Below are positions 47,855 through 64,000 of a stretch of DNA of 64,000 nt, piece by piece. The DNA is from a virus (Duplodnaviria; Caudoviricetes): the IMG/VR virus record IMGVR_UViG_3300011008_002712; one strand, 5' to 3'. The position numbers were made by a program, and so were the translations under genes. Each line of letters starts with the position of its first letter. Position 1 is the first letter of the stretch. The notes beneath the pieces are model-generated. The model saw only the letters and a list, made by a program, of their open reading frames with translations, was not told where the DNA came from and did not search any database.

Positions 47855-48113
47855 TCAATATTTTCAACCATTTACATTTTAACATAAAACTAATAAGTTG
47901 TAAACAGTAAGCACCAAAACAAAGAAATCCATAAATCCAATTATTATTGATGTAAGCTGTCAGCATTCAGGCACTACTATTTCCTTAATATTTATAAGGA
48001 AAATATGTTCATATCAGCCGAAATGAATTTGATTTCAGTCATTTTTTTTGTATAGCAATTTCATATTTACAGTATTTAGCTTTTTTGATAAAATTTTATT
48101 TGAGGTGATAGAT

Positions 48114-50048
48114 ATGGATGGATATAAAGAAATTCCTGAATATTCAAATTATGCAATAGACAAAAATGGGAATGTCCTTAGCAAGAAATTCAATAAGATT
48201 TTACACCATTGTATTTCAAAAACTGGAATTCATACTGTTTCAATAACAAAAAACAAACAAGCATATCGTTTCCCCGTGTCTAAGCTTCTGGCAATGACTT
48301 TTCTTGATAATCCAAATTATTGCATATACGTTAACTACAAAGATGGAGATCCAACAAACTTTTCATTAGATAATATTTATTGGAGCGAAAAAGTTTTTAG
48401 AAAGCAAAGGGGTAAATCAATGAGAATAAATCCAAAGAATCTGTCCGTAAAACCTACTATAAGCGAGACAAAATTTTTCCAAAAGCAATGCCAAATCAAT
48501 TTTCAAATCAGTAAAGAAGATTTTCGTAATTCTTTGATCTTTTCATCTTTATATAAAGAAAAATGTTTTGAATCAGACTGGAATGAATTTAAGAATTACA
48601 TAAAAGAATCTTATAAAGACAAAAAAGGAAAGCAGATAAGATTTTCTTCTCAACAAATTGATTTAGAGGCAAAAGAGATGGGAGTCAATGTTGAGAACGT
48701 TTGTACTATTGACAGGACTCTAATAGAAAGAGATGCAATCATTTTTGTCACATATGCGAATATCAATTTGATTTTGAATTTCAATCTTTTGAATATCCAT
48801 CCACAGTATGTTGATAGCAGCTATCACCCAGCCGTTTTGAATATTGTATATCGTATTTTAAAGAGCGATTTCATTCAAGCAATGAAAGATGCAAATTTTT
48901 ATGATGAATATCTTATTGATTATCATTGGAACGCATTCCAGTCGTTCTTGGATCGCTATTATGATGTGTCTAATCAAGGAATCGATACGATACGTTTGAA
49001 TTCATATATATTTTCTCAAAAAGCTAATGAGCTCGGACATGTTGCAGATATGCAAACAATATCTATCAATCACGTCATAGAGAATGACGAATACGATGCT
49101 ATTGACGTAGCTATGGCATGCACTTGTCATGATTTTCCTTTGACAATCAATAATGATTTTAATATGTTTGACCAATTAGATGAAATGGAAAAACATGTTA
49201 ATGTTGATGAAAATTTTGTCTGGACACAAGAATTGCTAAGCAAGCTTAATTTTCAGTTCCCATATCCTGAAACAAAGACTCCAGTAGACAAAAACATGAA
49301 AATGACATTTCATATTCATAGAAAGTTTTTTGTCCAACAATTAAAAAATGCTGGATTTGAAACGCTAGATTCTGAAAAAAATACTATCATGTTTAATGCA
49401 TGGAGTGACTATTTCGCAAATCAAGTACATGGCATTGATGATTTATCAAAATTTGGAATGAATAAAACGTTTCTAACAGATTTTGTCAAAAGATGGGGAT
49501 ATGAACCAACAAATATACAACTAAGACAAAATGAAGTAGACATTGACGACATAAACGATGATGTCAAAGAAGTGGAATTTACGATTATAACTAAAAGCAT
49601 AGTCAAAGACAGAGATGATGAAAGAGATGAAGAAATCATACGTTCTATCCAGACAAATCTAATCAGAGTAGACGGTGTAAAAAAAGATTTATCATGTTTT
49701 GGCACGGATCCATTCAATGACGCAAGCACGGACGATGATGAAGATTATAACTATTTTGATTGTTATATCAATTTTGATGAATTCAGGCTTGCTGTAGATG
49801 AAATTGGAATGTATGATGCAAATACAATCAAACGTACATGGGCATATTTAGCAAGATTCATCAATAATAATAATGTCTTAGCAGACAAAGAAGAAAGATA
49901 CTCAAGGATTGGATTTTATGAAGGGTGGAGCAACGATATATGCGAAAATCTTGGATATCATCAAGATAACATGGAATGTATTACTACGTGTAAATTAACA
50001 TCAAATAGAATCAATTTTACATTTGAATGCGAATCATATAAGCTTTAA
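48114..50048 (+). CDS. NUMOD4/degenerate HNH N-terminus fused to four repeated domains
   Basis: YKEIPEYSNYAIDKNGNV (NUMOD4); VNYKDGDPTNFSLDNIYW (HNH-like with H to Y); start moved to the ATG after GAGGTG. Confidence 0.65.
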   Translation: MDGYKEIPEYSNYAIDKNGNVLSKKFNKILHHCISKTGIHTVSITKNKQAYRFPVSKLLAMTFLDNPNYCIYVNYKDGDPTNFSLDNIYWSEKVFRKQRGKSMRINPKNLSVKPTISETKFFQKQCQINFQISKEDFRNSLIFSSLYKEKCFESDWNEFKNYIKESYKDKKGKQIRFSSQQIDLEAKEMGVNVENVCTIDRTLIERDAIIFVTYANINLILNFNLLNIHPQYVDSSYHPAVLNIVYRILKSDFIQAMKDANFYDEYLIDYHWNAFQSFLDRYYDVSNQGIDTIRLNSYIFSQKANELGHVADMQTISINHVIENDEYDAIDVAMACTCHDFPLTINNDFNMFDQLDEMEKHVNVDENFVWTQELLSKLNFQFPYPETKTPVDKNMKMTFHIHRKFFVQQLKNAGFETLDSEKNTIMFNAWSDYFANQVHGIDDLSKFGMNKTFLTDFVKRWGYEPTNIQLRQNEVDIDDINDDVKEVEFTIITKSIVKDRDDERDEEIIRSIQTNLIRVDGVKKDLSCFGTDPFNDASTDDDEDYNYFDCYINFDEFRLAVDEIGMYDANTIKRTWAYLARFINNNNVLADKEERYSRIGFYEGWSNDICENLGYHQDNMECITTCKLTSNRINFTFECESYKL

Positions 50049-50049
50049 T

Positions 50050-50077
50050 AAAAGGGGAGCCTAGGCTCCCCTTTTTT
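50050..50077 (+). terminator. Intrinsic terminator
   Basis: AAAAGGGGAGCC-TA-GGCTCCCCTTTTTT. Confidence 0.75.
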
Positions 50078-50190
50078 ATTCTATACCCAACTTCTTATAA
50101 ACACCTTCTACAGTGATTCTAGAATGCACAAGCCACATTATTAATTTATCGTACAACAACAAAAAACGCAATATTTATTTTAAATTGCTA

Positions 50191-50219
50191 TTTACATTGT
50201 AATTGTCGTGTGATATAAT
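50191..50219 (+). promoter_or_regulatory. Sigma70/SigA-type promoter
   Basis: TTTACA-N17-TATAAT with extended -10 TG. Confidence 0.6.
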
Positions 50220-50243
50220 TACAACAAGAGGGAGTGATTTTGA

Positions 50244-50945
50244 ATGTCTAGAATCATAGCAATTGGTGATATTCATGGGAATTATGATAAATTGATGTCT
50301 TTGTGGAATAAACTTAACATATCATCAGATGATAAAGTTATTTTTTTAGGAGACTATATAGATAGAGGAAACAAAAATATAGAAGTTATTTCTTTTATTA
50401 TGAAACTATCACAGCAAGATAATATTATCTGCCTGATGGGAAATCATGAAGATATGTTCTTAAGCTATCTAGACAAAGATATATGGGGAAATGATTGGCT
50501 TCATAATGGAGGAGAAATAACATTAAATCAGCTAAAAGAAAAACAAAATATTCTATATGAATTTGAAGAATTTTGCAGGAATAAATTGTTGCTTTATTAT
50601 AGTATGATTATCAATCAACAAAAATATATCTTTGTTCATGCTGGAATCAATCCTTCTTCTAAAGAACAAACAAGAGATTCATTACTATGGACAAGAGAAA
50701 CATTCTACAATCATTATAAAGGAAATGATATTTTTGTAGTTGGACATACCGTTACGATATATTTTGATTTTGAATTCAAAGTATATGCTGGATGCTATAA
50801 CAATGATAACTATGCTCCAATCAAATTAAGAAATAACATTTATGCTATAGACACTGGAAGTTACTTAGATGAAGGAAAAATAACTGCATGGATATACGAT
50901 TTAAATGATAATCATATTAAATATATGCAAAGTAGCTCATTATAA
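50244..50945 (+). CDS. Calcineurin-like metallophosphoesterase (Ser/Thr phosphatase)
   Basis: GDIHG, GDYIDRG, GNHE, HAG, GHT, IDTG. Confidence 0.9.
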   Translation: MSRIIAIGDIHGNYDKLMSLWNKLNISSDDKVIFLGDYIDRGNKNIEVISFIMKLSQQDNIICLMGNHEDMFLSYLDKDIWGNDWLHNGGEITLNQLKEKQNILYEFEEFCRNKLLLYYSMIINQQKYIFVHAGINPSSKEQTRDSLLWTRETFYNHYKGNDIFVVGHTVTIYFDFEFKVYAGCYNNDNYAPIKLRNNIYAIDTGSYLDEGKITAWIYDLNDNHIKYMQSSSL

Positions 50946-50963
50946 ATAGAGAGGGAATAAAAC

Positions 50964-51158
50964 ATGATATATATAGTTTGTTTTTTTCTTTTTTGTGCTA
51001 TTACATTTTTTATTTTATGTTCAACAGCCAAAGAATATCCAATTGAAGAAGGATATATTCAATGCTCAAAATGCAATAAATATTTTCCACCAAATGAACT
51101 AATCTTCGATAAAAATTTTTATTGTCATAAATGTGCAGAACAAAGAAAAAAATTGTAA
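50964..51158 (+). CDS. Small membrane-anchored Zn-finger protein
   Basis: TM N-terminus; CSKC...CHKC. Confidence 0.55.
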   Translation: MIYIVCFFLFCAITFFILCSTAKEYPIEEGYIQCSKCNKYFPPNELIFDKNFYCHKCAEQRKKL

Positions 51159-51251
51159 ATTAAATAATTATTAGTAGAAGACTACTGATTCATATAAGCA
51201 CTAAACCTTTTATGATTTAAGGTTTTTAAGCGTTCTTTTGCCGAATTTATT

Positions 51252-51782
51252 TTGAAAGGAGTCGTTTTTTTGAGTTACGTTTTTAACGGAGTAACATATA
51301 AAAGTATGCTTCAATGTTGTCAAACATTGAACGTTGATTATACTTATATGCTTTTCTTAAAAAAGAAACATAAAATTACATCTCAAGAAGCGATTGAACA
51401 CCTTGTCAAAAAACTAAGACCAAAAAATATTTCTATTACGTTTAGAGGAATAACATACGAAAACAGATATAAATTATGCAATTCATATAATGTAAGCTAT
51501 ATGACAATCTATTCATATATGAAAAAATATGATGTCAATTTTTTAGTTGCTTTTTCTTTATATTTGGAAAATAAGGAAAGGCATAAAATAAAGAAAAATA
51601 AACCAAACAAGTATACTGTGATATACAAAGGAAAAACATATAAAAACATGGCACAATGTTGTAAAGAATTAAATTTAAATTACGGTTCTGTAAGACAAAC
51701 AAAAAGTTTGTTTAAATTTACAAATGAACAAGTCTTAGACTACTTTTTTAGAAGTCAAAATAAAAGAACAAAACCAAAGTAA
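51252..51782 (+). CDS. Basic protein with three small HTH-like DNA-binding repeats
   Basis: FNGVTYKSMLQCC, FRGITYENRYKLC and YKGKTYKNMAQCC repeats. Confidence 0.55.
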   Translation: MKGVVFLSYVFNGVTYKSMLQCCQTLNVDYTYMLFLKKKHKITSQEAIEHLVKKLRPKNISITFRGITYENRYKLCNSYNVSYMTIYSYMKKYDVNFLVAFSLYLENKERHKIKKNKPNKYTVIYKGKTYKNMAQCCKELNLNYGSVRQTKSLFKFTNEQVLDYFFRSQNKRTKPK

Positions 51783-51930
51783 CAGGTTTTATAAATGGCA
51801 TTTTTTTTAAAAAAACAAGAATACTTAGATTATTTTAAGATAAGTAGATTAAGATTTAATAAGAATATGATACAAATTTTAAAAACTCTGTAAAAAATTG
51901 CAATAAAAATAGAAGTGAGATCAGTTGATC

Positions 51931-53019
51931 TCACTTTTTCTTTGACGCTAATTGGCACATATATAAAACATCTATCGGAATCACTGATAAGATTGTTTTT
52001 GTCAATGTATAAGTATCACAATGGCTTAATGATCCAATAAAAGAATTCAATGTCTGAGTGAATCTGAGTAAAGTTTCTTCTTTATATAATAGTTTTTTAA
52101 CATGCGATTTCATTTTTCTTTTTATTCTAAGAGCAGAACTTTTTCTTAATTTCATATGATCGTGAAATGCAACATATCCACAAAAATCAACACCAACTCT
52201 AGTTTTTCTAATCGCTGTTTTTCTGTTGAATTCTAATTTTAAATTATTTTTTGCAAATTCTTTTAATTTATCTCTTATTTCGCGAAGATAGTTTTTATCA
52301 TTATGAACAATGCATATGTCATCCATGTATCTTACATAATATTTTGTTCTTAATTCGTGTTTTGCATATTGATCTAATTCATTTAAATATATATTTGCAA
52401 ACATTTGCGAAGTTAAATTGCCTATTGGAAGTCCTAATCCAGTTTCTCTTTCTCCAGTCAAGAAAATGTCATCTAAAGCGATACCAAGAGGCTCCTGACA
52501 GAATATAATATCTCCAAGAAGTTTTTGTGCTCTTTTATCTTTTATTGTATCGCATATTATCTGGTAAAGTATTTCATGTACAACTCTATAAAAATATTTA
52601 GATATATCCATTTTTAAGATATAGCTATCTTCTCCACATATTTTTATATATTCTTGTAATTTATCTATAGCTGCATGGGTTCCTCCACCAACTCTACATG
52701 CATAACTTGTTGGTATGAATCTTTTTTCAAAAATTGGATTGATTGTTGCAAAAACACTCCATTGAACAACTCTGTCTTTAAATGGTAATGACATAATTAA
52801 TCTTCGCTTTGGATCTGATATATAGAATTTATGATATGGAGACATGACATAAGTGTCATTGATTAATTCTTTTTGTATTTCTAATAAATTTTTTCTTGGA
52901 TTCATCATAAATTCTATTGCGTCTCTTCTATTTCGTTTTCCTTTCAATGCTTTTTTATAGGCATATACTAACGTATCCATGTCAGTAATTTGTTCAAATA
53001 TGTGATTATATCTTTTCAA
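51931..53019 (-). CDS. DGR-type reverse transcriptase
   Basis: PKRRLIMSLPFKDRVVQ, LKMDISKYF, GLPIGNLTSQ (DGR-type motif), YVRYMDD, GVDFCGY; start moved to TTG at 53019 after GGAG RBS. Confidence 0.9.
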   Translation of the reverse strand: MKRYNHIFEQITDMDTLVYAYKKALKGKRNRRDAIEFMMNPRKNLLEIQKELINDTYVMSPYHKFYISDPKRRLIMSLPFKDRVVQWSVFATINPIFEKRFIPTSYACRVGGGTHAAIDKLQEYIKICGEDSYILKMDISKYFYRVVHEILYQIICDTIKDKRAQKLLGDIIFCQEPLGIALDDIFLTGERETGLGLPIGNLTSQMFANIYLNELDQYAKHELRTKYYVRYMDDICIVHNDKNYLREIRDKLKEFAKNNLKLEFNRKTAIRKTRVGVDFCGYVAFHDHMKLRKSSALRIKRKMKSHVKKLLYKEETLLRFTQTLNSFIGSLSHCDTYTLTKTILSVIPIDVLYMCQLASKKK

Positions 53020-53078
53020 CGTAATTCTCCTAATTCGAAATGTTGTTTTTATTTTATTCAAAAAAGGATTGATAATTT

Positions 53079-53927
53079 TTGAGTATATTACTTTGGCCAA
53101 ACTTAGAAAAACATAATATTAAAGAAACATTAGATAAAGTTGTACAATATCTTTATAACAATTCAAAAAATGATATTGACAAACCAATAATGCTAAAGCA
53201 ACATGCAAAATTCTTTTATTATGACAATATTGGAATAGATTTTGAATCAAATGAAGTTATTCCAATAGCTATATCTTTTGGAGGTGATGGTACATTCCTT
53301 GGAATGTGCAGAGAATTATTAAAAAACAAATATTTTCATACGCGAGTATGCGGAATAAATTTAGGAAATCTTGGTTTCTTAACTAACATTGGAACAAATA
53401 ATTTAGCTAATAGATTGAATGATCTTGTCAATAAACATTATAAATCAATTAAAAGAAATGTCTTGATAGGGAACATTGACGATGTGAATCAAATTGCAAT
53501 CAATGATATTTCTGTAACAAAAGGCTCAATGATTTCTCGAATGCTGAACCTATCTCTTTATATAGATAATAAGTATTTTATGAATTATAGAGCAGATGGA
53601 TTAATTATTTCTACAGCAACTGGTTCTACTGGATATTCATTGTCAGCTGGAGGAAGTATCGTGCATCCATCAGTTGAGGCATTATTGATTACTCCAATTT
53701 GCGCACATTCAATTAGTATGAAACCATTAATTATAAGTTTTCGTTCTTCTATTACTATTAAAATTGATGATTCTAAAGAAGCGTTAGCAACATTTGACGG
53801 ACAAAAAAGCTATAAACTAAATAACAAACAAGAAATACATATAAAAAGTGCACCATATAAGTTAAACACGATACAATTCCAAGATTTAGATTACTATGAC
53901 ATTATAAAGGAGAAATTGATAAAATGA
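53079..53927 (+). CDS. nadK: NAD+ kinase
   Basis: GGDGT, GINLGNLGFL, ND, DGLIISTATGSTGYSLSAGG. Confidence 0.92.
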   Translation: MSILLWPNLEKHNIKETLDKVVQYLYNNSKNDIDKPIMLKQHAKFFYYDNIGIDFESNEVIPIAISFGGDGTFLGMCRELLKNKYFHTRVCGINLGNLGFLTNIGTNNLANRLNDLVNKHYKSIKRNVLIGNIDDVNQIAINDISVTKGSMISRMLNLSLYIDNKYFMNYRADGLIISTATGSTGYSLSAGGSIVHPSVEALLITPICAHSISMKPLIISFRSSITIKIDDSKEALATFDGQKSYKLNNKQEIHIKSAPYKLNTIQFQDLDYYDIIKEKLIK

Positions 53928-54382
53928 TTTTAATTTTAAAAAACATTAAAAACATAATTAACATTAATTTTTTAAAAACTGATTCAATATCATTGGATGC
54001 AACGAAGATATTTGATAGTGAAGATCATTTTGTTGCTTGTATAGAAGAAGATATTGAAATAACTAAAAAATTTTATCGAGAACTAATTAAAAAATTATTA
54101 GAAAATAAAGAATTGGATACGATTTATATTAATGATTTTAATAAAACATTGTGCGCAAAATCATATTCAGATGATTATGCAATAAAATGCAAGTATAAAA
54201 ATGGGATAGAAGAAACGTATTTTACTTATGAATATCGTCGTGAAATGAAAAACAAACTAAAAAAAGAAGAAAATGAAGAAATAACAGAAGAAATTTTGGA
54301 AGCTTTAGAAGAAAAAGAAGACAAAAATTTAGAATACTGCGACAAAGTTAGATATAGACATTGTTTTAAAAATAAAAAATAA
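53924..54382 (+). CDS. Hypothetical protein coupled to nadK
   Basis: ATGA overlap with the nadK stop. Confidence 0.55.
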   Translation: MILILKNIKNIININFLKTDSISLDATKIFDSEDHFVACIEEDIEITKKFYRELIKKLLENKELDTIYINDFNKTLCAKSYSDDYAIKCKYKNGIEETYFTYEYRREMKNKLKKEENEEITEEILEALEEKEDKNLEYCDKVRYRHCFKNKK

Positions 54383-54544
54383 AGACACCGTTCGTGTGCA
54401 AAATATGCACCTACTAACTGTCTTTATCTGATACTACATTTTTTAACAGATACAATATGTCTGTTATGGATTTATGCCCCCTGTGCTCGAGCATCTTGAT
54501 ATACGGTCACGCATAGGCCGTATATACTCGCTTAACAAGTGAGC
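54379..54544 (-). ncRNA. DGR spacer RNA 3' of the TR (structured)
   Basis: Hairpins ATATACGG..CCGTATAT, TAACAGA..TCTGTTA and terminal ATAAAGACA-GTTAGTAGG...CGAACGG-TGTCTTTAT; GGCATAAATCCA can pair with TGGGGTTATGCC 5' of the TR. Confidence 0.65.
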
Positions 54545-54664
54545 TCAGGCGAGGCGGAAGCCGATGTTAGTGTTCGTGTTGGACGAATTGTTGTTCAGAT
54601 TCCAGTAGAAGAGGCCAGCTTTCGACCCATTGTTCCAATTGCCGCCGACGTTAGCGACAACGCA
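54545..54664 (-). repeat. DGR template repeat (TR) for a C-type-lectin-fold variable region
   Basis: Conceptual translation CVVANVGGNWNNGSKAGLFYWNLNNNSSNTNTNIGFRLA*; 11 AAY codons; GC-rich island; 1.5 kb from a DGR RT. Confidence 0.9.
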
Positions 54665-54979
54665 TTTGGCATAACCCCAATGTAATTTTCTTAGGCCTGT
54701 TTACTGTATTGAACATACACGTCCAACACGAACAAACCATCGAAATTTATTTTACAGAATTAATATAGAATATAAAGCATTTCTTATAACAATGAATTTA
54801 ATGGAGACAAAATGATGAAATGTTCTTTTCAGCATGTCAAAACGCTTTCATTTTATAGCAAACAAATGTCAGATGATCAATTTGATTATTTGTTGAAGTA
54901 TACTTAAAATATAATTCATTATAAAAATGAATTATCTAAAGAATTTTTAAAATTTTTTCTAAACTACATTATGTATACA

Positions 54980-56233
54980 TTATTTGGATTCATTAATTAT
55001 TAAATAACGCCAATTATTACATGAACATTTTTTCTTTAAAAATCTAAGAGGAATTTTTAATGTTTTATTTGGTAAATAAATATAGTTGTCATTAATGTCT
55101 TTTATGTATGCATAATCTCTTGAAAATCCAGATACCCATCCAATTTTTCCTTTACAAATTACTTTGTCATTGAGACAACAATTTTTTATTTGTTTTATAT
55201 TTTTGTTGTTTCGTTTTTGAGTGGTGTTTGAATTTTTTCTTCCTTTTCTTGGGATTGCTTCATGTAAAGAACGTTTCTTTTTTCTAAATTGTTTAATGAT
55301 GAAAAAATCATTTGAATTTTCTTTTATTCGTGCGATTCCAGAAATTATGATTGCATCATTATAATGAGTCTTAGGTAAATTCAATTTATTTCTTATAGAA
55401 GATGTAGTAGAACCATTGATAAAAATGGCGGTTGAGAAAAGCTTGTTTATTTTGAATTTTATGATGTTCATAAATGTAGGATCTTTGAATTGTTTGCACT
55501 CGTGTTTTTGCATTAAATTGAATAAGATTTTTCCCTTTTTGTGATTTTCCTTTGTATGACATTTATTACAAAGTGTTATTAAATTATCTGCGCGCTCACT
55601 GCCATTCTTGTTTTTATACATAATATGGTGAATATGTAGTTTTTTTGAATTTCCGCATATCTGACATTTGTGGTTATCCCTTGCTAAAACATAATCATAA
55701 ACATTGTCATATCCAAAACATTTTCCGTGTTTATAGTCTGTTGTTGGATCAATGATTTTATGGATATTGAATTTTGCGTTTTCAATGTGAATGATTGGAT
55801 TCGGTAGTAAACTAGAAAATTTGTTTATCCAAAATAAAATGTTGTTGAATCTAGATTGAAGGCTTGGCGTTAAGAGATTTTTTGATTTTCTGTTCAAAAA
55901 TTTTGCTCTACGATATCTAGTTTTTCTTATTCTTCTAGATCTTCTTAGTTGTTTTCTTTTTAAAAGCAATTGATGAACATCTTGGCGTAATATTATTTCA
56001 CCTTTTGCAATTACATTATTTGAAGATGTAATTGCTATTCCGATATGTTTTGTTCCCATGTCAATTCCAAGATGAATTTCTTGTTTAGCTTCTCCTGTTG
56101 CATATAGAAGTTGTATTGTGAATGGCATGTAATGAATAATCTTAGCTTTCTTTTGTTTTAAAAGAATTCTAGCTTTTCTTTGAGAACATGGCATTAGTGC
56201 TTGTCCTCTTTTATTTCTAACAAAAACTCTCAA
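54980..56233 (-). CDS. iscB: IscB RNA-guided nuclease (PLMP, RuvC, bridge helix, HNH)
   Basis: ALMPC, GIDMG (RuvC-I), RRSRRIRKTRYR, IHIE (RuvC-II), HIHH...NLITLCNKCH (HNH), THYNDA (RuvC-III); catalytic residues appear intact. Confidence 0.93.
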   Translation of the reverse strand: MRVFVRNKRGQALMPCSQRKARILLKQKKAKIIHYMPFTIQLLYATGEAKQEIHLGIDMGTKHIGIAITSSNNVIAKGEIILRQDVHQLLLKRKQLRRSRRIRKTRYRRAKFLNRKSKNLLTPSLQSRFNNILFWINKFSSLLPNPIIHIENAKFNIHKIIDPTTDYKHGKCFGYDNVYDYVLARDNHKCQICGNSKKLHIHHIMYKNKNGSERADNLITLCNKCHTKENHKKGKILFNLMQKHECKQFKDPTFMNIIKFKINKLFSTAIFINGSTTSSIRNKLNLPKTHYNDAIIISGIARIKENSNDFFIIKQFRKKKRSLHEAIPRKGRKNSNTTQKRNNKNIKQIKNCCLNDKVICKGKIGWVSGFSRDYAYIKDINDNYIYLPNKTLKIPLRFLKKKCSCNNWRYLIINESK

Positions 56234-56239
56234 GTTTTG

Positions 56240-56481
56240 TTCCTCCTATCTAATGATATGAGTTTGATTGCCCTTCGCTAATGTTGTAATCGCTTACTTA
56301 CAATGGTAAGCTGTCCTTGGGTTGACCATTTTTCATCTCTAAAAACTTTTACAGAGCCCAAACAGTGTCATAAACTAGAGCATCATTTATGAGTGTTATA
56401 ACGAAAACAACGTAGTCATTATGACTTAAGCTAATCAATGATATGAAAGAGATGCATTGATTTGCCGCCAACGTTAATTTT
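56240..56481 (-). ncRNA. omegaRNA of IscB (guide ~56481-56462, scaffold from 56461)
   Basis: ATCAATG..CATTGATTAGCTTAAG..GACTACGTT..TGATGCTCTAGT..CTCTGT..AACATTAGCGAAGG directly upstream of iscB, matching HEARO/omegaRNA landmarks. Confidence 0.8.
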
Positions 56482-56711
56482 ATTTTAATAAAAAAAATAA
56501 AATAAAAACTATTGATATTTTAGATATCAATGGTTTTATAATGTTTATGTATAATTTATAAAATTATTTTGGAATTTTTTGTGGATGTTTAAAAGCTTCA
56601 AATTTGTCCTTCATAGAACAAATTTTTGTAGAAATAACATAGATTTATTTGATTCCACAAAATTTATGAAACTTAAAATAAATAAATTAAAAATAAAAAG
56701 GAGAAAATAAA

Positions 56712-56921
56712 ATGAAATTTATTGTAGGATTGTTAGGGTTGACATTTGGTGTTGCTATGTTTTTTGTTATTTCAATTGTTCTTGATGTTGCTGTTTCATC
56801 GATAGTATTAGCTCTAATTGATTTCTTTCTTGGTACATCTTATTTTACAGCACAATACGTTGCAATTATGACTGTCATTTTATTTTTGATTGGGTTATTA
56901 AGGAAATCAAAATGTAAGTAA
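56712..56921 (+). CDS. Small two-TM membrane protein
   Basis: Hydrophobic 69 aa; AGGAG RBS. Confidence 0.65.
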   Translation: MKFIVGLLGLTFGVAMFFVISIVLDVAVSSIVLALIDFFLGTSYFTAQYVAIMTVILFLIGLLRKSKCK

Positions 56922-56982
56922 AATTAACAAACAATTTGAGTTTATTCATTTTATGAAATAAATAAATATATCAAAATTAACA

Positions 56983-57111
56983 TGTAGACATATAGCCAAT
57001 GAAAATAGATTAACCCAATCTCATTTCAAATGTTTATGCTGCGGATATGAAATGGATGCAGATATAAATTCTATTTTAAATATTAAAAAAGGAGGCTGTT
57101 CCCTCCTTTAA
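56983..57111 (+). pseudogene. Remnant of a TnpB C-terminus (Zn finger plus RuvC-III)
   Basis: Translates CRHIANENRLTQSHFKCLCCGYEMDADINSILNIKK; no start codon. Confidence 0.7.
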
Positions 57112-57276
57112 TCACAAAAATGTTTTGTAATTTCTTCTAAAATTTTATTTCCAGCATTTTGCATTGAAGAATTCCAACAATTTTTTAAATTATTCTTAAC
57201 AAAATTATCAAAATTTTTATTGATATTAGATTGTATTTAATTCAAAATCTTTGTTTGTTCTAAAATGTTTTTTCAT
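57109..57276 (-). pseudogene. Degraded copy of 62429-62653
   Basis: MKKHFRTNKDFELNTI* premature stop plus internal deletion relative to the paralog. Confidence 0.7.
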
Positions 57277-57277
57277 G

Positions 57278-57808
57278 TCAATAATTTATTTTGAAGTTTT
57301 CTGACGGTCTGAGTTTTATATATAACATGCCTTTTCTTCTTCCTTTATAAGTGTAATCTTCAAATGTATCAAATTTTTGTCGTTCTAATCCTTTTCCCCA
57401 TCCATTAGCATATTGTTCTTCAAGATAATCAGCTGTAGATTTTAATATTTCGTTTGTTGGGTTTTCGCTATACGTTACTTTCATAATAGCTGTTTCTTGA
57501 GTAAGCTCGAATTCGATATCTTTAATTGTTGGAACTTTTTCTTTAGCGGCATATAAAATAATTTCTTTATGCGATTTAAAATCACTTTCAGCAAGCTCTT
57601 TAGCTTCATCATAATATTCCCACCAAAATAGCGCTGGTACTTCTTGTGTGCTACCAGTATTTCTTAAATATTCTACTCGTATTTTCCATTCTGATTTGAA
57701 TTCTTTTACAGTATCATCACTAGCATGATGTTTTCTATATATAGAGTGTTTAGTTAATGGAATATTTTCAAATGATTTTTTCTTTAAATGTTTTCTTATA
57801 ATGTTCAT
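57278..57808 (-). CDS. Hypothetical protein, paralog of 62655-63224
   Basis: Identical first ~42 aa. Confidence 0.75.
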   Translation of the reverse strand: MNIIRKHLKKKSFENIPLTKHSIYRKHHASDDTVKEFKSEWKIRVEYLRNTGSTQEVPALFWWEYYDEAKELAESDFKSHKEIILYAAKEKVPTIKDIEFELTQETAIMKVTYSENPTNEILKSTADYLEEQYANGWGKGLERQKFDTFEDYTYKGRRKGMLYIKLRPSENFKINY

Positions 57809-57875
57809 TTACATAACCTCTTTTTGTTAGATTTCTATTTTCAATATATGAAATATGCGTAATTTTATTTTTGAT

Positions 57876-59577
57876 GGCGAGAAGACTCCCGCCTCTTAGC
57901 GAAGCGTAAGCGGGAGATGAATCGCCACACTCTTTGACTCAAAACCATACCAAATTCCATCCAAGAATGGAATATATGTGCTATAATATAGAGCAGCAAG
58001 TATTCCACAAGAGAAGGGAGTGAATCAGCCATGAATCAGCTACAGCAAGCCTTGCTGGAACAAAACCTGCTCGAAACTGTCAAGGAGGAATTCCAGTATG
58101 GATATGTCTACGAAATCTACCCTGATAAAGAACAACGTCAGTATATCCATAGGAATTGCGGCTGCAAAAGGCAGATTCACAATCTTTTTGTGGATGAGCT
58201 GTATCACTATCTCGAAAACATAAACTTTAAAAAAGGAGCTATCCCTGGCGAATTCATCAAAAATCTGTCTAAGGCTAAATTCTACAAGGAAAAATTCCCT
58301 TACATGAAGGAAGTTGATTCCCTGGCACTGTCTGCTGCCCGCCTGGATTTTGTCGCTTCGATACGGAAATATAATTCAGAATATGTACCTAAAGGCAATC
58401 CATACAAAAAGAAGGCTCTTAAGCAGGTGAAAACTATCGGCAAGGAGCTTACCTTTTGCGACCTGAAAGGAATGCCTAAATTCTCGGCAAAATATTTTTC
58501 TGAGCAGTCCTTCACTACGAATAACCAAAATGGCACTGTCATGCTTGAAGAATATTCCAGCGGAAACAAAAAATATATGGCTCTGACTATACCGAAGCTG
58601 AAGAATCCCATCAAGCTGCGGTATCATCGGGAAATCCCTGAAAAGGCGAAAATCACCAAGGTTGTCATACATCGCATCGGACAAGATAAATACACTGCTT
58701 CTTTGGCGGTGGTATTCACCAAAGAATATCTTGCCCTGAAGCATGATCAGAAATCACTGGAAAAATTCAAGAAGTTCCTACATGAACATCATGAGTATTG
58801 CCTTGGACTGGATTATTCTCAGCAGGAAGGTTGCGTACCAAGCACAAAAGACAAAGTCCTGCTGGAAAATATTCTGAATACATTTCAAAAGACATACCGA
58901 AAAAATGAGCAGAAACTGCAAGCACTTCAAAGGCAGCTTTCCAAAAAAATCAAGCAAAGCAACGCTTACCTAAAGTTGCGGAGCAAAATCAAGAGACTGC
59001 ACAAAAAGATTGCCAATATCCGAAAGAATGCCCTAAATGTGCTCTCATACAGTATGGCAAGACAGTTTGCCATGGTATCTGTTGAGGACATTGACCTTCG
59101 TGGAATGTCCCAGACGCTCAGGCTGGCAAAAAACCTTCTGGATAATGGCTTTGGCATGTTTCGGGAGATGCTTGCATATAAGCTTAAAGCCAACGGATAT
59201 GTCTTTGTTAAGATAGGCCGTTTCGAGAAATCCACACAGACCTGCCATGAATGCGGTCATATCAATACGTTTACCAAAAACATGAATATCAAGGAATACG
59301 ACTGCGGTGGCTGCGGCAGACATCTGAATCGCGACTACAACGCAGCTTTGAATATTCGTGATATGGGAATTCAAACTGTTTCGACTGACCTTTTTCAGGA
59401 GAAAAAAGCTAAATTCTCACTCGCTGCTCTGCGAGCAAAAAAGAGTAGGGCCGGGAACCTGTCCTAAAGTCCGGTAGGAGTGACCGCATACGCCTTTCAG
59501 CAGGTCTAGCATTTGCTGAACGGTAGCGGCACGATGACGACTGGAAACTCCTGCCTCTACAGGCAGGAGTAGTTCAC
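57876..59577 (+). mobile_element. TnpB-only IS200/IS605-family (IS1341-like) element
   Basis: TTGAT before the left end; left hairpin CTCCCGC..GCGGGAG; right hairpin ACTCCTGCCT..AGGCAGGAGT followed by TTCAC; higher GC than the phage background. Confidence 0.8.
58031..59467 (+). CDS. tnpB: TnpB
   Basis: YEIYPDKEQ, LGLDYS, VSVEDIDL, TCHECG..CGGCG, NRDYNAALNI. Confidence 0.9.
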   Translation: MNQLQQALLEQNLLETVKEEFQYGYVYEIYPDKEQRQYIHRNCGCKRQIHNLFVDELYHYLENINFKKGAIPGEFIKNLSKAKFYKEKFPYMKEVDSLALSAARLDFVASIRKYNSEYVPKGNPYKKKALKQVKTIGKELTFCDLKGMPKFSAKYFSEQSFTTNNQNGTVMLEEYSSGNKKYMALTIPKLKNPIKLRYHREIPEKAKITKVVIHRIGQDKYTASLAVVFTKEYLALKHDQKSLEKFKKFLHEHHEYCLGLDYSQQEGCVPSTKDKVLLENILNTFQKTYRKNEQKLQALQRQLSKKIKQSNAYLKLRSKIKRLHKKIANIRKNALNVLSYSMARQFAMVSVEDIDLRGMSQTLRLAKNLLDNGFGMFREMLAYKLKANGYVFVKIGRFEKSTQTCHECGHINTFTKNMNIKEYDCGGCGRHLNRDYNAALNIRDMGIQTVSTDLFQEKKAKFSLAALRAKKSRAGNLS

Positions 59578-59766
59578 TTTTGATCTGGCTACTAAGGAAA
59601 TCAAAAAATAAGTAAAATTAATAAACAATTTGAGTTTATTTATTTTATGAAATAAATAAAATATATAAAAATTAACGTTATCTTTGAAATTAAAAAGAAG
59701 TTAACGATGAGTTATTTTTTTCTCAGCCAGGGTTATTCTTGAAAATAACAAATGAGATGAATTACA

Positions 59767-60796: not shown

Positions 60797-60861
60797 TCTC
60801 TCCTTTTTGTACGACATGGTTGTTGCAAATAATAAAAAAAGGAGGTTGTTCCCTCCTTTAA

Positions 60862-62432
60862 CGTCCCCCCCGCCAAGAAGTCTCCCGCCTTTTAGGCGGT
60901 GAGATGAATTGGCGAATTTTTATAAAATAAATGATATACTTTTTTAGTAAAGGAGGTGAATAAGGAATGGCAGTAAAGGTTATAAAAACTAACTTCACGG
61001 CGATACCTGAAGATATAGAACGACTTTTTGCTTGTAACAGAATATCCGGGATGATTTGGAATAAAGTTTTGCAGATAGCCAAAGATTATAGCCTTACTCA
61101 CGATGGCAAATGGGCGGGTATAACTTATCTTCAATCAGCTACAAAAAATATTTATCCTCTACATTCTCAGAGTGTTCAGGCGGTTGTTCATAAATATCTT
61201 TTTGCTAGAGACTCTGCCTACCAAGCCAGACTCAAAGGCTTAAAAAATAAATATCCTTGGTGTTCAAAGAAAAATTTTAACACCAAATGGGTTGACCAAG
61301 CTTTTGCTTTTGATTTCAAAGCAAGAACTTTGACTCTTTCTTTGGGTATCTGGAATCATAAAAAACAGAATCCAATCTTGCTTTCTCTTCCATTAGATGT
61401 CATTACAAAACTAAAAAATATCTCCTCCAAATGTAAAAACGCTATCTCTGAAATAGAATTAATATACGACAATGGCCTTTTTCTTTGTATCACCTATGAT
61501 GATGGGGAAAAAGCTCCTAAAAGCATCGATTCAATCGAAATAGCTGGTGTGGATCTAGGAGAAATCCATACTATAGCAGCCTGTGCTACTAATGGTAAAT
61601 CTATCATCATCACAGGTAGAAAGCTACGTTCCATTCATAGGCTCCGTAATAAATTGATCTCTAAAATCCAAAAAGCACAAGCTAAATGTAAAAAAGGTTC
61701 TCGCTGTTGGAAAAAGTTACAACGTAAAAAGCGGTTTATCCTTTCGAAATCAAAGCACCAAGTAGCATACAAGACACATGAAATAACAAAGAATTTCGTG
61801 GACTGGTGTGTAGAGAATAAAATAACTAAAGTATACTGTGGAGATCCAGAGGGAGTGCAACGCAATACCTCCGGCAGGAAGAAAAAGAACCGCACTACAG
61901 CAAAGAGTAGAAAGAAAATCCGCAAGCGGAAGGTATCTCAGAGACTTTCGAACTGGAATTTTGGGAAGGTAAAAGACTATCTGAGATATAAGCTTCAAAA
62001 CAAAGGGATTACTTTTGAGGAGATAAATGAAGCATATACCTCCCAGACCTGTCCAGTATGCGGTAGGCGGCATAAAACCAGCAGTAGGAATTATGTATGC
62101 ACATGTGGATATAAAGCCCATAGGGATGTACATGGATCGCATAATATCTTATCCCTTGGATTAACAGGGCGTTTTGAAAAAATCTGTGATTTTGAGACAC
62201 AGAAGCCCAAGTATCTACGGCTGACTGCGTGAATAGTCAGAGTTGTATGTAGAAGCTCACGAACCGAGCCACGGTAGGTAATCCCTGCTGCGTAGCCTGT
62301 TTTAGATAACTGAAGAATGAGTACGACAACCTTCGGTTCCGTAGGAAAAGGTCAACACCTTTTCCCTCCGTTCATTCGACATCTATCGTTAAAAACAGGA
62401 AGCCCCCACTTTTTTAAGTGGGGGAGGTTCAC
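60862..62432 (+). mobile_element. TnpB-only IS200/IS605-family element; boundaries defined by the empty paralogous site
   Basis: TTTAA|CGTCCCC...CCCCCACTT..AAGTGGGGGAGGTTCAC|TCATAAAAATG versus empty TTTAA|TCACAAAAATG at 57107-57122. Confidence 0.9.
60967..62232 (+). CDS. tnpB: TnpB
   Basis: LHSQSVQ, GVDLGEIH, EINEAYTSQTCPVCG..CTCG, HRDVHGSHNI. Confidence 0.9.
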   Translation: MAVKVIKTNFTAIPEDIERLFACNRISGMIWNKVLQIAKDYSLTHDGKWAGITYLQSATKNIYPLHSQSVQAVVHKYLFARDSAYQARLKGLKNKYPWCSKKNFNTKWVDQAFAFDFKARTLTLSLGIWNHKKQNPILLSLPLDVITKLKNISSKCKNAISEIELIYDNGLFLCITYDDGEKAPKSIDSIEIAGVDLGEIHTIAACATNGKSIIITGRKLRSIHRLRNKLISKIQKAQAKCKKGSRCWKKLQRKKRFILSKSKHQVAYKTHEITKNFVDWCVENKITKVYCGDPEGVQRNTSGRKKKNRTTAKSRKKIRKRKVSQRLSNWNFGKVKDYLRYKLQNKGITFEEINEAYTSQTCPVCGRRHKTSSRNYVCTCGYKAHRDVHGSHNILSLGLTGRFEKICDFETQKPKYLRLTA

Positions 62433-62653
62433 TCATAAAAATGTTTTGTAATTTCTTCTAAAATTTTATTTCCAGCATCTTGCATTGAAGAATTCCAACA
62501 ATTTTTTAGATTATTTCTGACAAAATTATTAAAATCTTTATCAGCATTAATTTCTTCACTGACATTGATTAAAGAGAATGCTAAATTTTTTAGCATTTCA
62601 TATTGAGTTTTATTCAACTCAAAATCTTTGTTCGCTCTAAGATGTTTTTTCAT
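62429..62653 (-). CDS. Small hypothetical protein whose stop codon is supplied by the IS end
   Basis: 74 aa; TGA at 62431-62429 lies inside the TTCAC end. Confidence 0.65.
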   Translation of the reverse strand: MKKHLRANKDFELNKTQYEMLKNLAFSLINVSEEINADKDFNNFVRNNLKNCWNSSMQDAGNKILEEITKHFYE

Positions 62654-62654
62654 G

Positions 62655-63224
62655 TCAATAATCCATTTTGAAGTCTCTAGATGACCAGAGTTTTACATAT
62701 AACCTGCCAGTGCCAGTCTCATAATCTTCAATATACTCCCCAGTTTCTTCATCTTCATATCCAACATCAATTTGTTCTTCGAATGTATCGAATTCTTGCT
62801 GTTCTAATCCTTCTCCCCATCCATCAGCATATTGTCCTTCAAGATAATCAGCTGTAGATTTTAATATTTTGTCTGTTGGTTTTTCACTATATGTTACTTT
62901 CATAATAGCTGTTTCTGGAGTAAGTCTGAATTCCATGTCTTTAATTGTTGGAATTTCTTCTTTAGCTACATCTAAAATAATTTCTTTAGATGATTCGAAA
63001 CTACTTTCAGCACATTTTTTAGCTTCATCATAAAATTCTTCCCAAAATTTTGCCGATTCTTCTTCCATACCGCCAGCATCTGGATATTCTACCCATACTT
63101 TCCATTCTGATTTGAATTCTTTTACAGTATCATCACTAGCATGGTGTTTTCTATATATAGAATGTTTGGTTAATGGAATATTTTCAAATGATTTTTTCTT
63201 TAAATGTTTTCTTATAATATTCAT
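62655..63224 (-). CDS. Acidic hypothetical protein, paralog of 57278-57808
   Basis: YLEGQYADGWGEGLEQ motif; GAGG RBS. Confidence 0.75.
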   Translation of the reverse strand: MNIIRKHLKKKSFENIPLTKHSIYRKHHASDDTVKEFKSEWKVWVEYPDAGGMEEESAKFWEEFYDEAKKCAESSFESSKEIILDVAKEEIPTIKDMEFRLTPETAIMKVTYSEKPTDKILKSTADYLEGQYADGWGEGLEQQEFDTFEEQIDVGYEDEETGEYIEDYETGTGRLYVKLWSSRDFKMDY

Positions 63225-63369
63225 TTACATAACCTCTTTTTGTTAGTTTTCTATTTTCAATATATAAAATATGTGCAATTTTATTTTTGTAAGTAGAAAT
63301 TGTTACATTATAAAAAAATTTAATTTTTATATAATGTTTTAAATGGAAAATAAGAAAGGTGAGAATCAT

Positions 63370-63661: not shown

Positions 63662-64000
63662 ATGAAACATTTATGTAAAAAAATAGCAACTGTATCAGAA
63701 GATGATATTTCTCGTTTAGAAAACAATGTTATTTATGCATTGAATAATGTAAATAATTTTTTTAAATTAGTTGAAGAAGAAAAAGCAAAAGACTTTTCTA
63801 ATAAGATTAAAGACAGACTTCAAAATTATAAAACTAAAGAAGATTTAGAAGACATCTATGCATTGCTGAAAGCTATGTACAACGGCTTGAAGTATGTAAC
63901 AAAAATCGAAAGTACTTTAATTTCTATTGAAGATGCGATGAAGCGAGTTAATATTTTATCTGCTGGACTAGACAAAAACGAAAAGATTAAATTACAATGA
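63662..64000 (+). CDS. Hypothetical protein
   Basis: 112 aa; GAGG RBS; stop at the window end. Confidence 0.6.
   Translation: MKHLCKKIATVSEDDISRLENNVIYALNNVNNFFKLVEEEKAKDFSNKIKDRLQNYKTKEDLEDIYALLKAMYNGLKYVTKIESTLISIEDAMKRVNILSAGLDKNEKIKLQ

Follow-up and report, generated by a model that had tools for sequence, protein, structure and literature searches.

We describe the core of a diversity-generating retroelement (DGR) in the virus record IMGVR_UViG_3300011008_002712 (Duplodnaviria; Caudoviricetes), in which the template repeat (TR) and its spacer RNA are separated from the reverse transcriptase (RT) gene by an inverted two-gene operon starting with a NAD kinase gene (nadK). The stretch analyzed, hereafter the window, comprises the first 64 kb (reverse strand; 64,000 nucleotides) of this single-contig 416,024-bp IMG/VR record, and coordinates refer to the window unless stated otherwise. 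On our reading of the sequence, RT, TR, and spacer likely represent a genuine DGR core of the avd-TR-RT lineage that has long been resident in an AT-rich 416-kb phage, is under selection, and has been split into two transcription units. The RT protein is under constraint between two strains of this phage. A variable repeat (VR) was not found in the available sequence, and the locus cannot be filed as a complete DGR. The explanation that we favor, though we put it at slightly under an even chance, is that the core still works, with its target gene and avd located in the remaining DNA of the same phage.

The RT gene (51931..53019, minus strand) is intact and of DGR type. Its 362-residue product matched Pfam RVT_1 (E = 3.3e-21) and phrog_1423 (E = 3.1e-126), and its best solved relative was the Bordetella DGR RT (bRT; PDB 8ub7, one of the RT-Avd-RNA structures of that system, E = 8.6e-53, residues 29-366), while group II intron and retron RTs scored far worse (E = 3.5e-22 or weaker). 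The translation retains IGNLTSQ and YMDD, which are signature motifs of DGR RTs. The most likely start codon is a TTG at 53019 behind AGGAGA, and gene callers picked the same product; no second RT is present in the 416,024-bp record. Just past the RT stop codon, a terminator-like hairpin (51913..51936, minus strand) was the sole such site found by a consensus scan of 51700-56700, for which shuffled sequences expect 1.3, so that it amounts to a consensus match only.

The TR (54545..54687, minus strand, including an in-frame TGA) aligned with eight of 12 TRs from relatives that are validated by TR-VR pairs, at 65-73% identity. Its translation, TGLRKLHWGYAKCVVANVGGNWNNGSKAGLFYWNLNNNSSNTNTNIGFRLA followed by a stop, is of the C-type-lectin type and ends in NIGFRLA and the stop codon (...GGNWNNGSKAGLFYWNLNNNSSNTNTNIGFRLA, stop). 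Within the 132-nt in-frame core, 31 of the 33 adenines fall in codon positions 1-2, 11 codons are AAY, and the guanine-plus-cytosine (GC) content is 52%, compared with 22% in the flank; a GC-rich 3' end is also present. No open reading frame (ORF) covers the TR, and its frame is closed by TAA at 54703-54701. We considered whether the repeat could be a VR remnant and rejected this, given its richness in Asn codons, the lack of a covering ORF, and the spacer that follows it as it follows the TRs, not the VRs, of relatives. Adenine-rich, non-coding, and lying beside a spacer, it qualifies as a true DGR template repeat.

The DGR spacer RNA region 3' of the TR (54377..54544, minus strand; ∼165 nt) aligned with the spacers of relatives, sharing with them a CAGTTAGTA box and three hairpins. 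When both strands of the 64-kb window were scanned with a covariance model derived exclusively from 14 relatives, the single match fell on the spacer but was weak (54523-54408, minus strand; 7.6 bits, E = 0.19). The spacer is closed by a hairpin (54377..54429, minus strand) with a predicted folding energy of -18.4 kcal/mol (z = -4.9; 0 of 200 shuffles folded as well), and directly 3' of it lies UUUUUUAUUUUU, forming a U-run (54376-54366). The outer stem of this hairpin and a GTTAGTA box also align with the spacers of relatives.

The relatives of the RT used for these comparisons are IMG/VR loci (L005-L037) on small phage contigs with RTs at most 49% identical to the one described here; identity to RTs of GenBank phages reached 45%. 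Their layout is VR-bAvd-TR-spacer-RT. An A-biased VR was present in 26 of 35 loci, lying 441-544 nt upstream of the TR in the 11 loci measured, and the distance from the TR end to the RT start codon was 166-237 nt. The ancestor of the element therefore probably had a canonical target-avd-TR-spacer-RT cassette. While RT, TR, and spacer here are homologous to those of the relatives, VR and bAvd are both missing and the gap from TR to RT is 1,525 nt. The same holds in comparison with the DGR of Bordetella phage BPP-1 (mtd-avd-TR-brt): its RT is homologous over the whole length, and its TR similarly encodes a C-type-lectin-type C-terminus with a GFRLA-like end and is followed by a spacer of ∼165 nt, but our record lacks an mtd-like target, a VR, and avd, and the TR-spacer and RT that are contiguous in BPP-1 are separated here by an inverted two-gene operon.

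Base composition suggests that the element is not a recent arrival. The RT gene has a GC content of 27.9%, as opposed to 38-47% in nine of ten relatives and 61.5% in the tenth (L037), and thus lies at the level of the phage (∼28-30% in window and record). In contrast, the TR (50% here, 50-61% in relatives) and the spacer (41% here, 35-57% in relatives) have kept the GC content of their relatives. This difference between the RT gene and the RNA parts points to long residence with selection on the latter.

The 1,304-nt operon that splits the core (53079-54382, plus strand) occupies exactly the interval from the helix that closes the spacer to the ribosome-binding site of the RT. Its first gene, nadK (53079..53927, plus strand; 282 residues), is inverted relative to the DGR parts and carries both domains expected of a NAD kinase (NadK/PpnK), NAD_kinase_C (PF20143; E = 1.3e-35, 122.3 bits against a cut-off of 23.7) and NAD_kinase (PF01513; E = 7.7e-09, 36.4 bits against a cut-off of 25.5), and we predict this function for it. 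It also matched phrog_13155 (E = 1.3e-41), and its N-terminus aligned from residue 1 with a 57% identical homologue. We found 5,457 homologues at E ≤ 1e-10, of which those bearing a name come from Pectinatus and Selenomonadaceae and are annotated as NAD(+)/NADH kinases, with 36-41% identity; this may be taken as a weak hint of the host range. Among 50,697 GenBank phage records, just 32 had tblastn matches to nadK, none above 36% identity.

The second gene, ORF152 (53924..54382, plus strand), overlaps the end of nadK by 4 nt and appears translationally coupled to it. It belongs to no known family: it had no match in Pfam or PHROG and no usable match in the ESM Atlas, and a search of 5.8 billion clusters recovered just one homologue, a 97% identical strain variant. 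Its structure model (pLDDT 39) was unusable, with a mixture of strand and helix as secondary structure. Single-protein searches of IMG/VR with nadK and ORF152 returned no relatives, and no copies of the repeated cassettes of the phage were found in the sequences at the junctions of the operon. The stop codon of ORF152 sits in the base of the stem of the hairpin that closes the spacer, such that two convergent units would share this hairpin. At the opposite side, nadK and the RT diverge from a 59-bp intergenic gap (53020..53078; GC content 22%). Promoter-like sites did not exceed chance (26 found, 34.9 expected), and we claim no promoter.

A preliminary description of this locus, made from the sequence alone, had already outlined a non-canonical split DGR, with TR and spacer ending in a hairpin and U-run near 54379, an inverted nadK with a coupled ORF spanning 1.3 kb, and an RT divergent from nadK across ∼60 bp; our measurements agree with this outline in every part. 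It had further proposed that the TR is a stand-alone non-coding RNA. This is plausible as judged from the sequence: TR and spacer finish in a hairpin and U-run of their own, and with the operon inverted in between, they could not simply share one transcript with the RT.

The description had also raised the possibility of an assembly artefact, in which a chimeric join placed nadK and ORF152 between TR and RT. We placed contigs of runs X1, X2, X3, and X7 on the window at 80% likeness and found that X1 holds a strain 97-98% identical to the one described here. One independent contig of this strain spans ORF152, spacer, and TR (54039-54800), and another spans nadK and ORF152 (53417-54056). A contig of X3, which comes from a different study, carries 54530-54806, including the TR, without any difference. 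The junction of RT and nadK is the point at which a chimeric join would find room, given that the listed X1 pieces stop at 53053 and resume at 53076 and none spans this interval; however, X1 depth was unbroken across 52818-53221, and the RT and ORF152 variants of the X1 strain both occur on contigs of which the longest measures 34,748 bp. Furthermore, nadK, ORF152, and the RT all have the GC content of the phage (22-28%). We therefore consider an artefact very improbable.

The strain comparison also bears on selection. The RTs of the two strains are identical at 361 of 362 residues, whereas ORF152 differs at four of 152. These four substitutions come from the protein-database variant and coincide one for one with the four non-synonymous differences of X1, indicating that the database variant and X1 represent one strain. 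All 15 listed strain differences in nadK and all three listed in the RT gene of X1 are synonymous. Together with the base composition and the design of the TR, the constraint on the RT argues against a long-dead remnant. We note, as a point against our reading, that the synonymous count covers 40 of the 170 X1 strain differences, so that the argument for selection on the RT rests on few sites and on the protein comparison.

In one contig of X3, position 51866 is followed directly by 54904, so that all 3,037 nt of the RT-nadK-ORF152-TR block are missing. Close to this joint are the arms of a 26-nt, 85% complementary inverted repeat (51874-51899 and 54930-54955), which lie on either side of the block. 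On its shorter side the joint extends over just 22 nt of AT-rich DNA, placed at 80% likeness, and it is possibly spurious. If real, it would make the block a unit that is present or absent among related phages.

The results that weigh against a working core are those of the searches for a VR, a target, and Avd, which covered the 416,024 bp of the record, corresponding to 99% of the parent contig. Scanning the record on both strands over 130 nt while tolerating changes at adenines gave no VR, the best non-self place having mismatches at 51 of 97 non-adenine positions. Scanning in 40-nt windows with up to five non-adenine mismatches recovered only two AT-rich look-alikes of the spacer, and gapped blastn with word size 7 recovered only noise. 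A genome-wide search for A-biased repeat pairs gave only four repeat matches of 57-64 nt at one promoter-like element. The same TR-VR script detected pairs in 26 of 35 loci of relatives, which served as positive control, and in none of four unrelated control loci. At the protein level, tblastn with 13 target proteins of relatives against the record returned the TR itself and noise (best E = 0.2), and no match to PF03781 (FGE-sulfatase) was found in the record. No extra contig fell on the TR in X1, X2, X3, and X7 at 80% likeness, although contigs drop rare variants and this does not show absence.

Avd was equally lacking, which counts against activity, given that bAvd otherwise always accompanies this RT lineage. 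Whereas the ORF between VR and TR matched bAvd (PF22296) above the cut-off in six of seven relatives tested, with a weak match in the seventh, the profiles PF22296 and PF05635 had no match at E ≤ 10 in the record, and tblastn with 11 Avd proteins of relatives gave only noise across stop codons. Weak matches of this kind at genome positions 294 kb and 322 kb were rejected since they cross stop codons or lie inside large unrelated ORFs.

The preliminary description had seen neither a GFRL-type VR nor an avd-like ORF in the window, and both statements now extend to the whole record. Its proposal that the TR acts in trans on remote C-type lectin receptor-binding genes of this genome gains no support from the searches above, which found no VR-like sequence on either strand of the 416,024 bp by adenine-tolerant, gapped, or protein-level comparison. 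It had equated the absence of any VR from the genome with a dead DGR; this absence holds for 99% of the parent contig, but a conserved RT is not what one would expect of an element that is simply dead.

These negative results are what would be expected if the core were orphaned, with target and avd lost, for example when rearrangements introduced IscB, two TnpB genes, and a duplicated 0.8-kb segment into the upstream 9 kb, leaving a recently disabled RT and TR-spacer remnant that diversifies nothing. VR, Avd, and any target homologue are absent from 99% of the parent contig, and the place of avd and target in the loci of 26 of 35 relatives is filled here by IscB-HEARO and TnpB elements. Nor are RTs without a VR rare: among 25,620 RT-bearing high-quality gut phage genomes, Nayfach et al. 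report a TR-VR pair in 85.7% and none in 14.3% (Nayfach et al., 2021; PMC8241571). Our locus resembles these, as far as that source describes them, in having an RT without detectable VR in a near-complete phage genome, and differs in the bona fide TR and spacer, the constraint on the RT between strains, and the 416-kb size of the phage. An RT protein that is nearly invariant between two strains differing by ∼1-2% in DNA, and better conserved than ORF152, is difficult to reconcile with orphaning, as are a TR and spacer that, unlike the RT gene, have kept their GC content, and a TR that has kept its codon design, in a 28% GC genome. Given this preservation, the loss of the target would have to be very recent. 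We regard orphaning as a serious but rather unlikely alternative.

Under the favored reading of a working core, the missing parts would have to lie outside the sequence searched, and the structure of the record suggests where. The record is classed as a provirus with a CheckV completeness of 99% and carries 12 tRNA genes and one tmRNA. The proteins of the window are also recorded on a parent contig of 419,969 bp, which exceeds the record by 3,945 bp. Base 1 of the record is the final base of a stop codon (the ORF at 63662-64000 ends exactly at the window end), and the opposite end (genome position 416024) truncates, after 36 nt, a gene preceded by a strong GGAGG site. These two ends indicate that the trim most likely lies beyond window position 64000, and the extra 3,945 bp would then lie upstream of the TR on the DGR strand, where relatives keep their target and avd. 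No terminal overlap or repeat was found between the record ends, and the assembly may thus not be closed. Against this placement, the extra DNA makes up only ∼1% of the parent contig, which renders a target there a priori unlikely.

If the core works, the TR-spacer RNA would be transcribed by itself as a short RNA whose 3' end lies at the hairpin and U-run (∼54377), and the RT would be made from a separate message. RNA and RT would come together in trans, a route compatible with plasmid experiments on the Bordetella system, and the adenine-mutagenized cDNA would be copied into a VR ending in ...GFRLA and a stop codon. This VR and Avd would reside either in the extra 3,945 bp of the parent contig upstream of the TR, or in an assembly gap.

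Alternatively, the TR and RT of the phage could rewrite a VR on another replicon (the host chromosome, a resident prophage, or a co-infecting element) that also supplies Avd. The constraint on an RT whose record contains no VR would fit this scenario. Wu et al. describe avd, TR, and brt functioning in trans from a plasmid, as well as non-adjacent targets in 45 of 372 DGRs, located more than 100 kb away in 10 of the 372 (Wu et al., 2018; PMC5758913). However, the same authors deem remote cellular targets unexpected for phage-borne DGRs, as such targets are not inherited with the phage. Two degenerate TR patterns had no match in IMG/VR or in contigs of JGI metagenomes, and one such pattern had none in 185,579 species genomes; these scans may leave out the window's own records. 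With the TR peptide as query, a full HMMER search returned 605 matches among 1.84 billion representative proteins, and the best 150 of these included no cognate VR: most were short Asn-rich ORFs read from other TRs, and the closest kept 19 of the 26 residues that would have to be unchanged in a cognate VR. These scans count against a working core as well. Two further sets of candidates were discarded. An exact 18-mer of the TR 3' end occurred on four IMG/VR contigs, all of them coincidental, with 69-74 mismatches at non-adenine positions across 156 nt, and a word-indexed search of longer proteins with the TR peptide gave 12 candidates, none of them significant, which is weak evidence. We consider a target on another replicon improbable.

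It is also conceivable, though again improbable, that the RT has been kept for a role other than diversification, with or without the TR-spacer RNA, the TR design being a leftover and ORF152 possibly a new partner. In favor of this, the RT is constrained while neither VR nor Avd is found, and architecture B3, TR-(avd)-RT, of Wu et al. (2018; PMC5758913) offers a precedent for an accessory gene lying reversed between TR and RT. ORF152, which is confined to this phage lineage, occupies the slot in which DGRs of the candidate phyla radiation (CPR) type place avd. However, the TR retains the full lectin-type template design and the spacer is conserved, and ORF152 lacks any Avd signal, evolves faster than its neighbors, and is translationally coupled to nadK rather than to a DGR part. 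For the broader proposition that the core is selected in a giant phage without a VR or Avd of its own, either by rewriting a gene on another replicon or by using a non-Avd partner such as ORF152 beyond in-cis tropism switching, we see only a small likelihood.

Returning to the reading of a split but selected core, much of its architecture falls within variation that has already been described. In the survey of Wu et al. (2018; PMC5758913), 75 of 372 DGRs lack an accessory gene (architecture A), TR and RT may lie on different strands, co-transcription not being required, and unrelated ORFs are nested among DGR parts in all architectures ('-X' forms), mostly between target and core. Nested ORFs, reversed genes between TR and RT, separate TR and RT units, and distant targets are thus all known. 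What is less usual here is that the core itself is split, that the inserted genes form a metabolic operon, that no VR is known, and that the carrier is a 416-kb phage. In contrast to the nested ORFs of that survey, which mostly part the target from the core, the operon described here parts TR from RT; in place of a reversed avd there are nadK and an ORFan; and every entry of the survey, as its text presents them, has a VR.

Should the core be active, this locus would indicate that TR-spacer RNA and RT can be maintained even when an unrelated metabolic operon separates them physically and transcriptionally. Another consequence would be that large-scale DGR surveys overlook such cases: in the pipeline of Roux et al., a repeat must lie no more than 1 kb from the RT gene and the two repeats of a pair within 20 kb (Roux et al., 2021; PMC8144416), and a locus with the TR ∼1.5 kb from the RT and no repeat pair would be missed. 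Finally, with an active core, DGRs would extend to a size class of phages for which an overview of 224 jumbo phages gave no lectin-fold FGS domains, the kind that DGR-type RTs diversify (Iyer et al., 2021; PMC7824862). An orphaned core would instead represent an ordinary snapshot of retroelement decay amid IscB and TnpB elements.

Upstream of the TR, beyond a non-coding gap of 292 nt (54688-54979), lies an IscB gene (54980..56233, minus strand; RRXRR 4.2e-49, HNH 1.6e-09), the stop codon of which borders this gap. Immediately upstream of it, in the same orientation, is a HEARO/omega RNA (56263..56461, minus strand; Rfam HEARO, 86 bits against a gathering score of 83), and this unit occurs as a single copy in the 416-kb record. 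In the preliminary description, iscB was said to occupy the usual position of avd. This is accurate as a location only: there is no sign that it replaces Avd, and IscB and HEARO form an OMEGA-type mobile unit of their own in this giant phage, a neighbor outside the DGR.

Further upstream, two TnpB genes (Cas12f1-like TNB, OrfB_IS605) are located at 58031-59467 and 60967-62232, both on the plus strand. Interleaved with them is a duplicated segment of ∼0.8 kb, 80-95% identical, with paralogous ORFs of 176 and 189 residues; the repeats lie at 57107-57873 and 62428-63289, 56879-56966 and 59573-59660, and 57082-57111 and 60832-60861. The 9 kb upstream of the TR therefore look like an IS200/605-type insertion and duplication hotspot. 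On the other side of the locus, just downstream of the RT, the plus-strand genes at 48048-51782 encode a 666-residue protein with an N-terminal HNH endonuclease domain, a NinI-like metallophosphatase (233 residues), and a 176-residue ORF with a weak I-HmuI NUMOD-like match, which would add homing-endonuclease-type content to the neighborhood.

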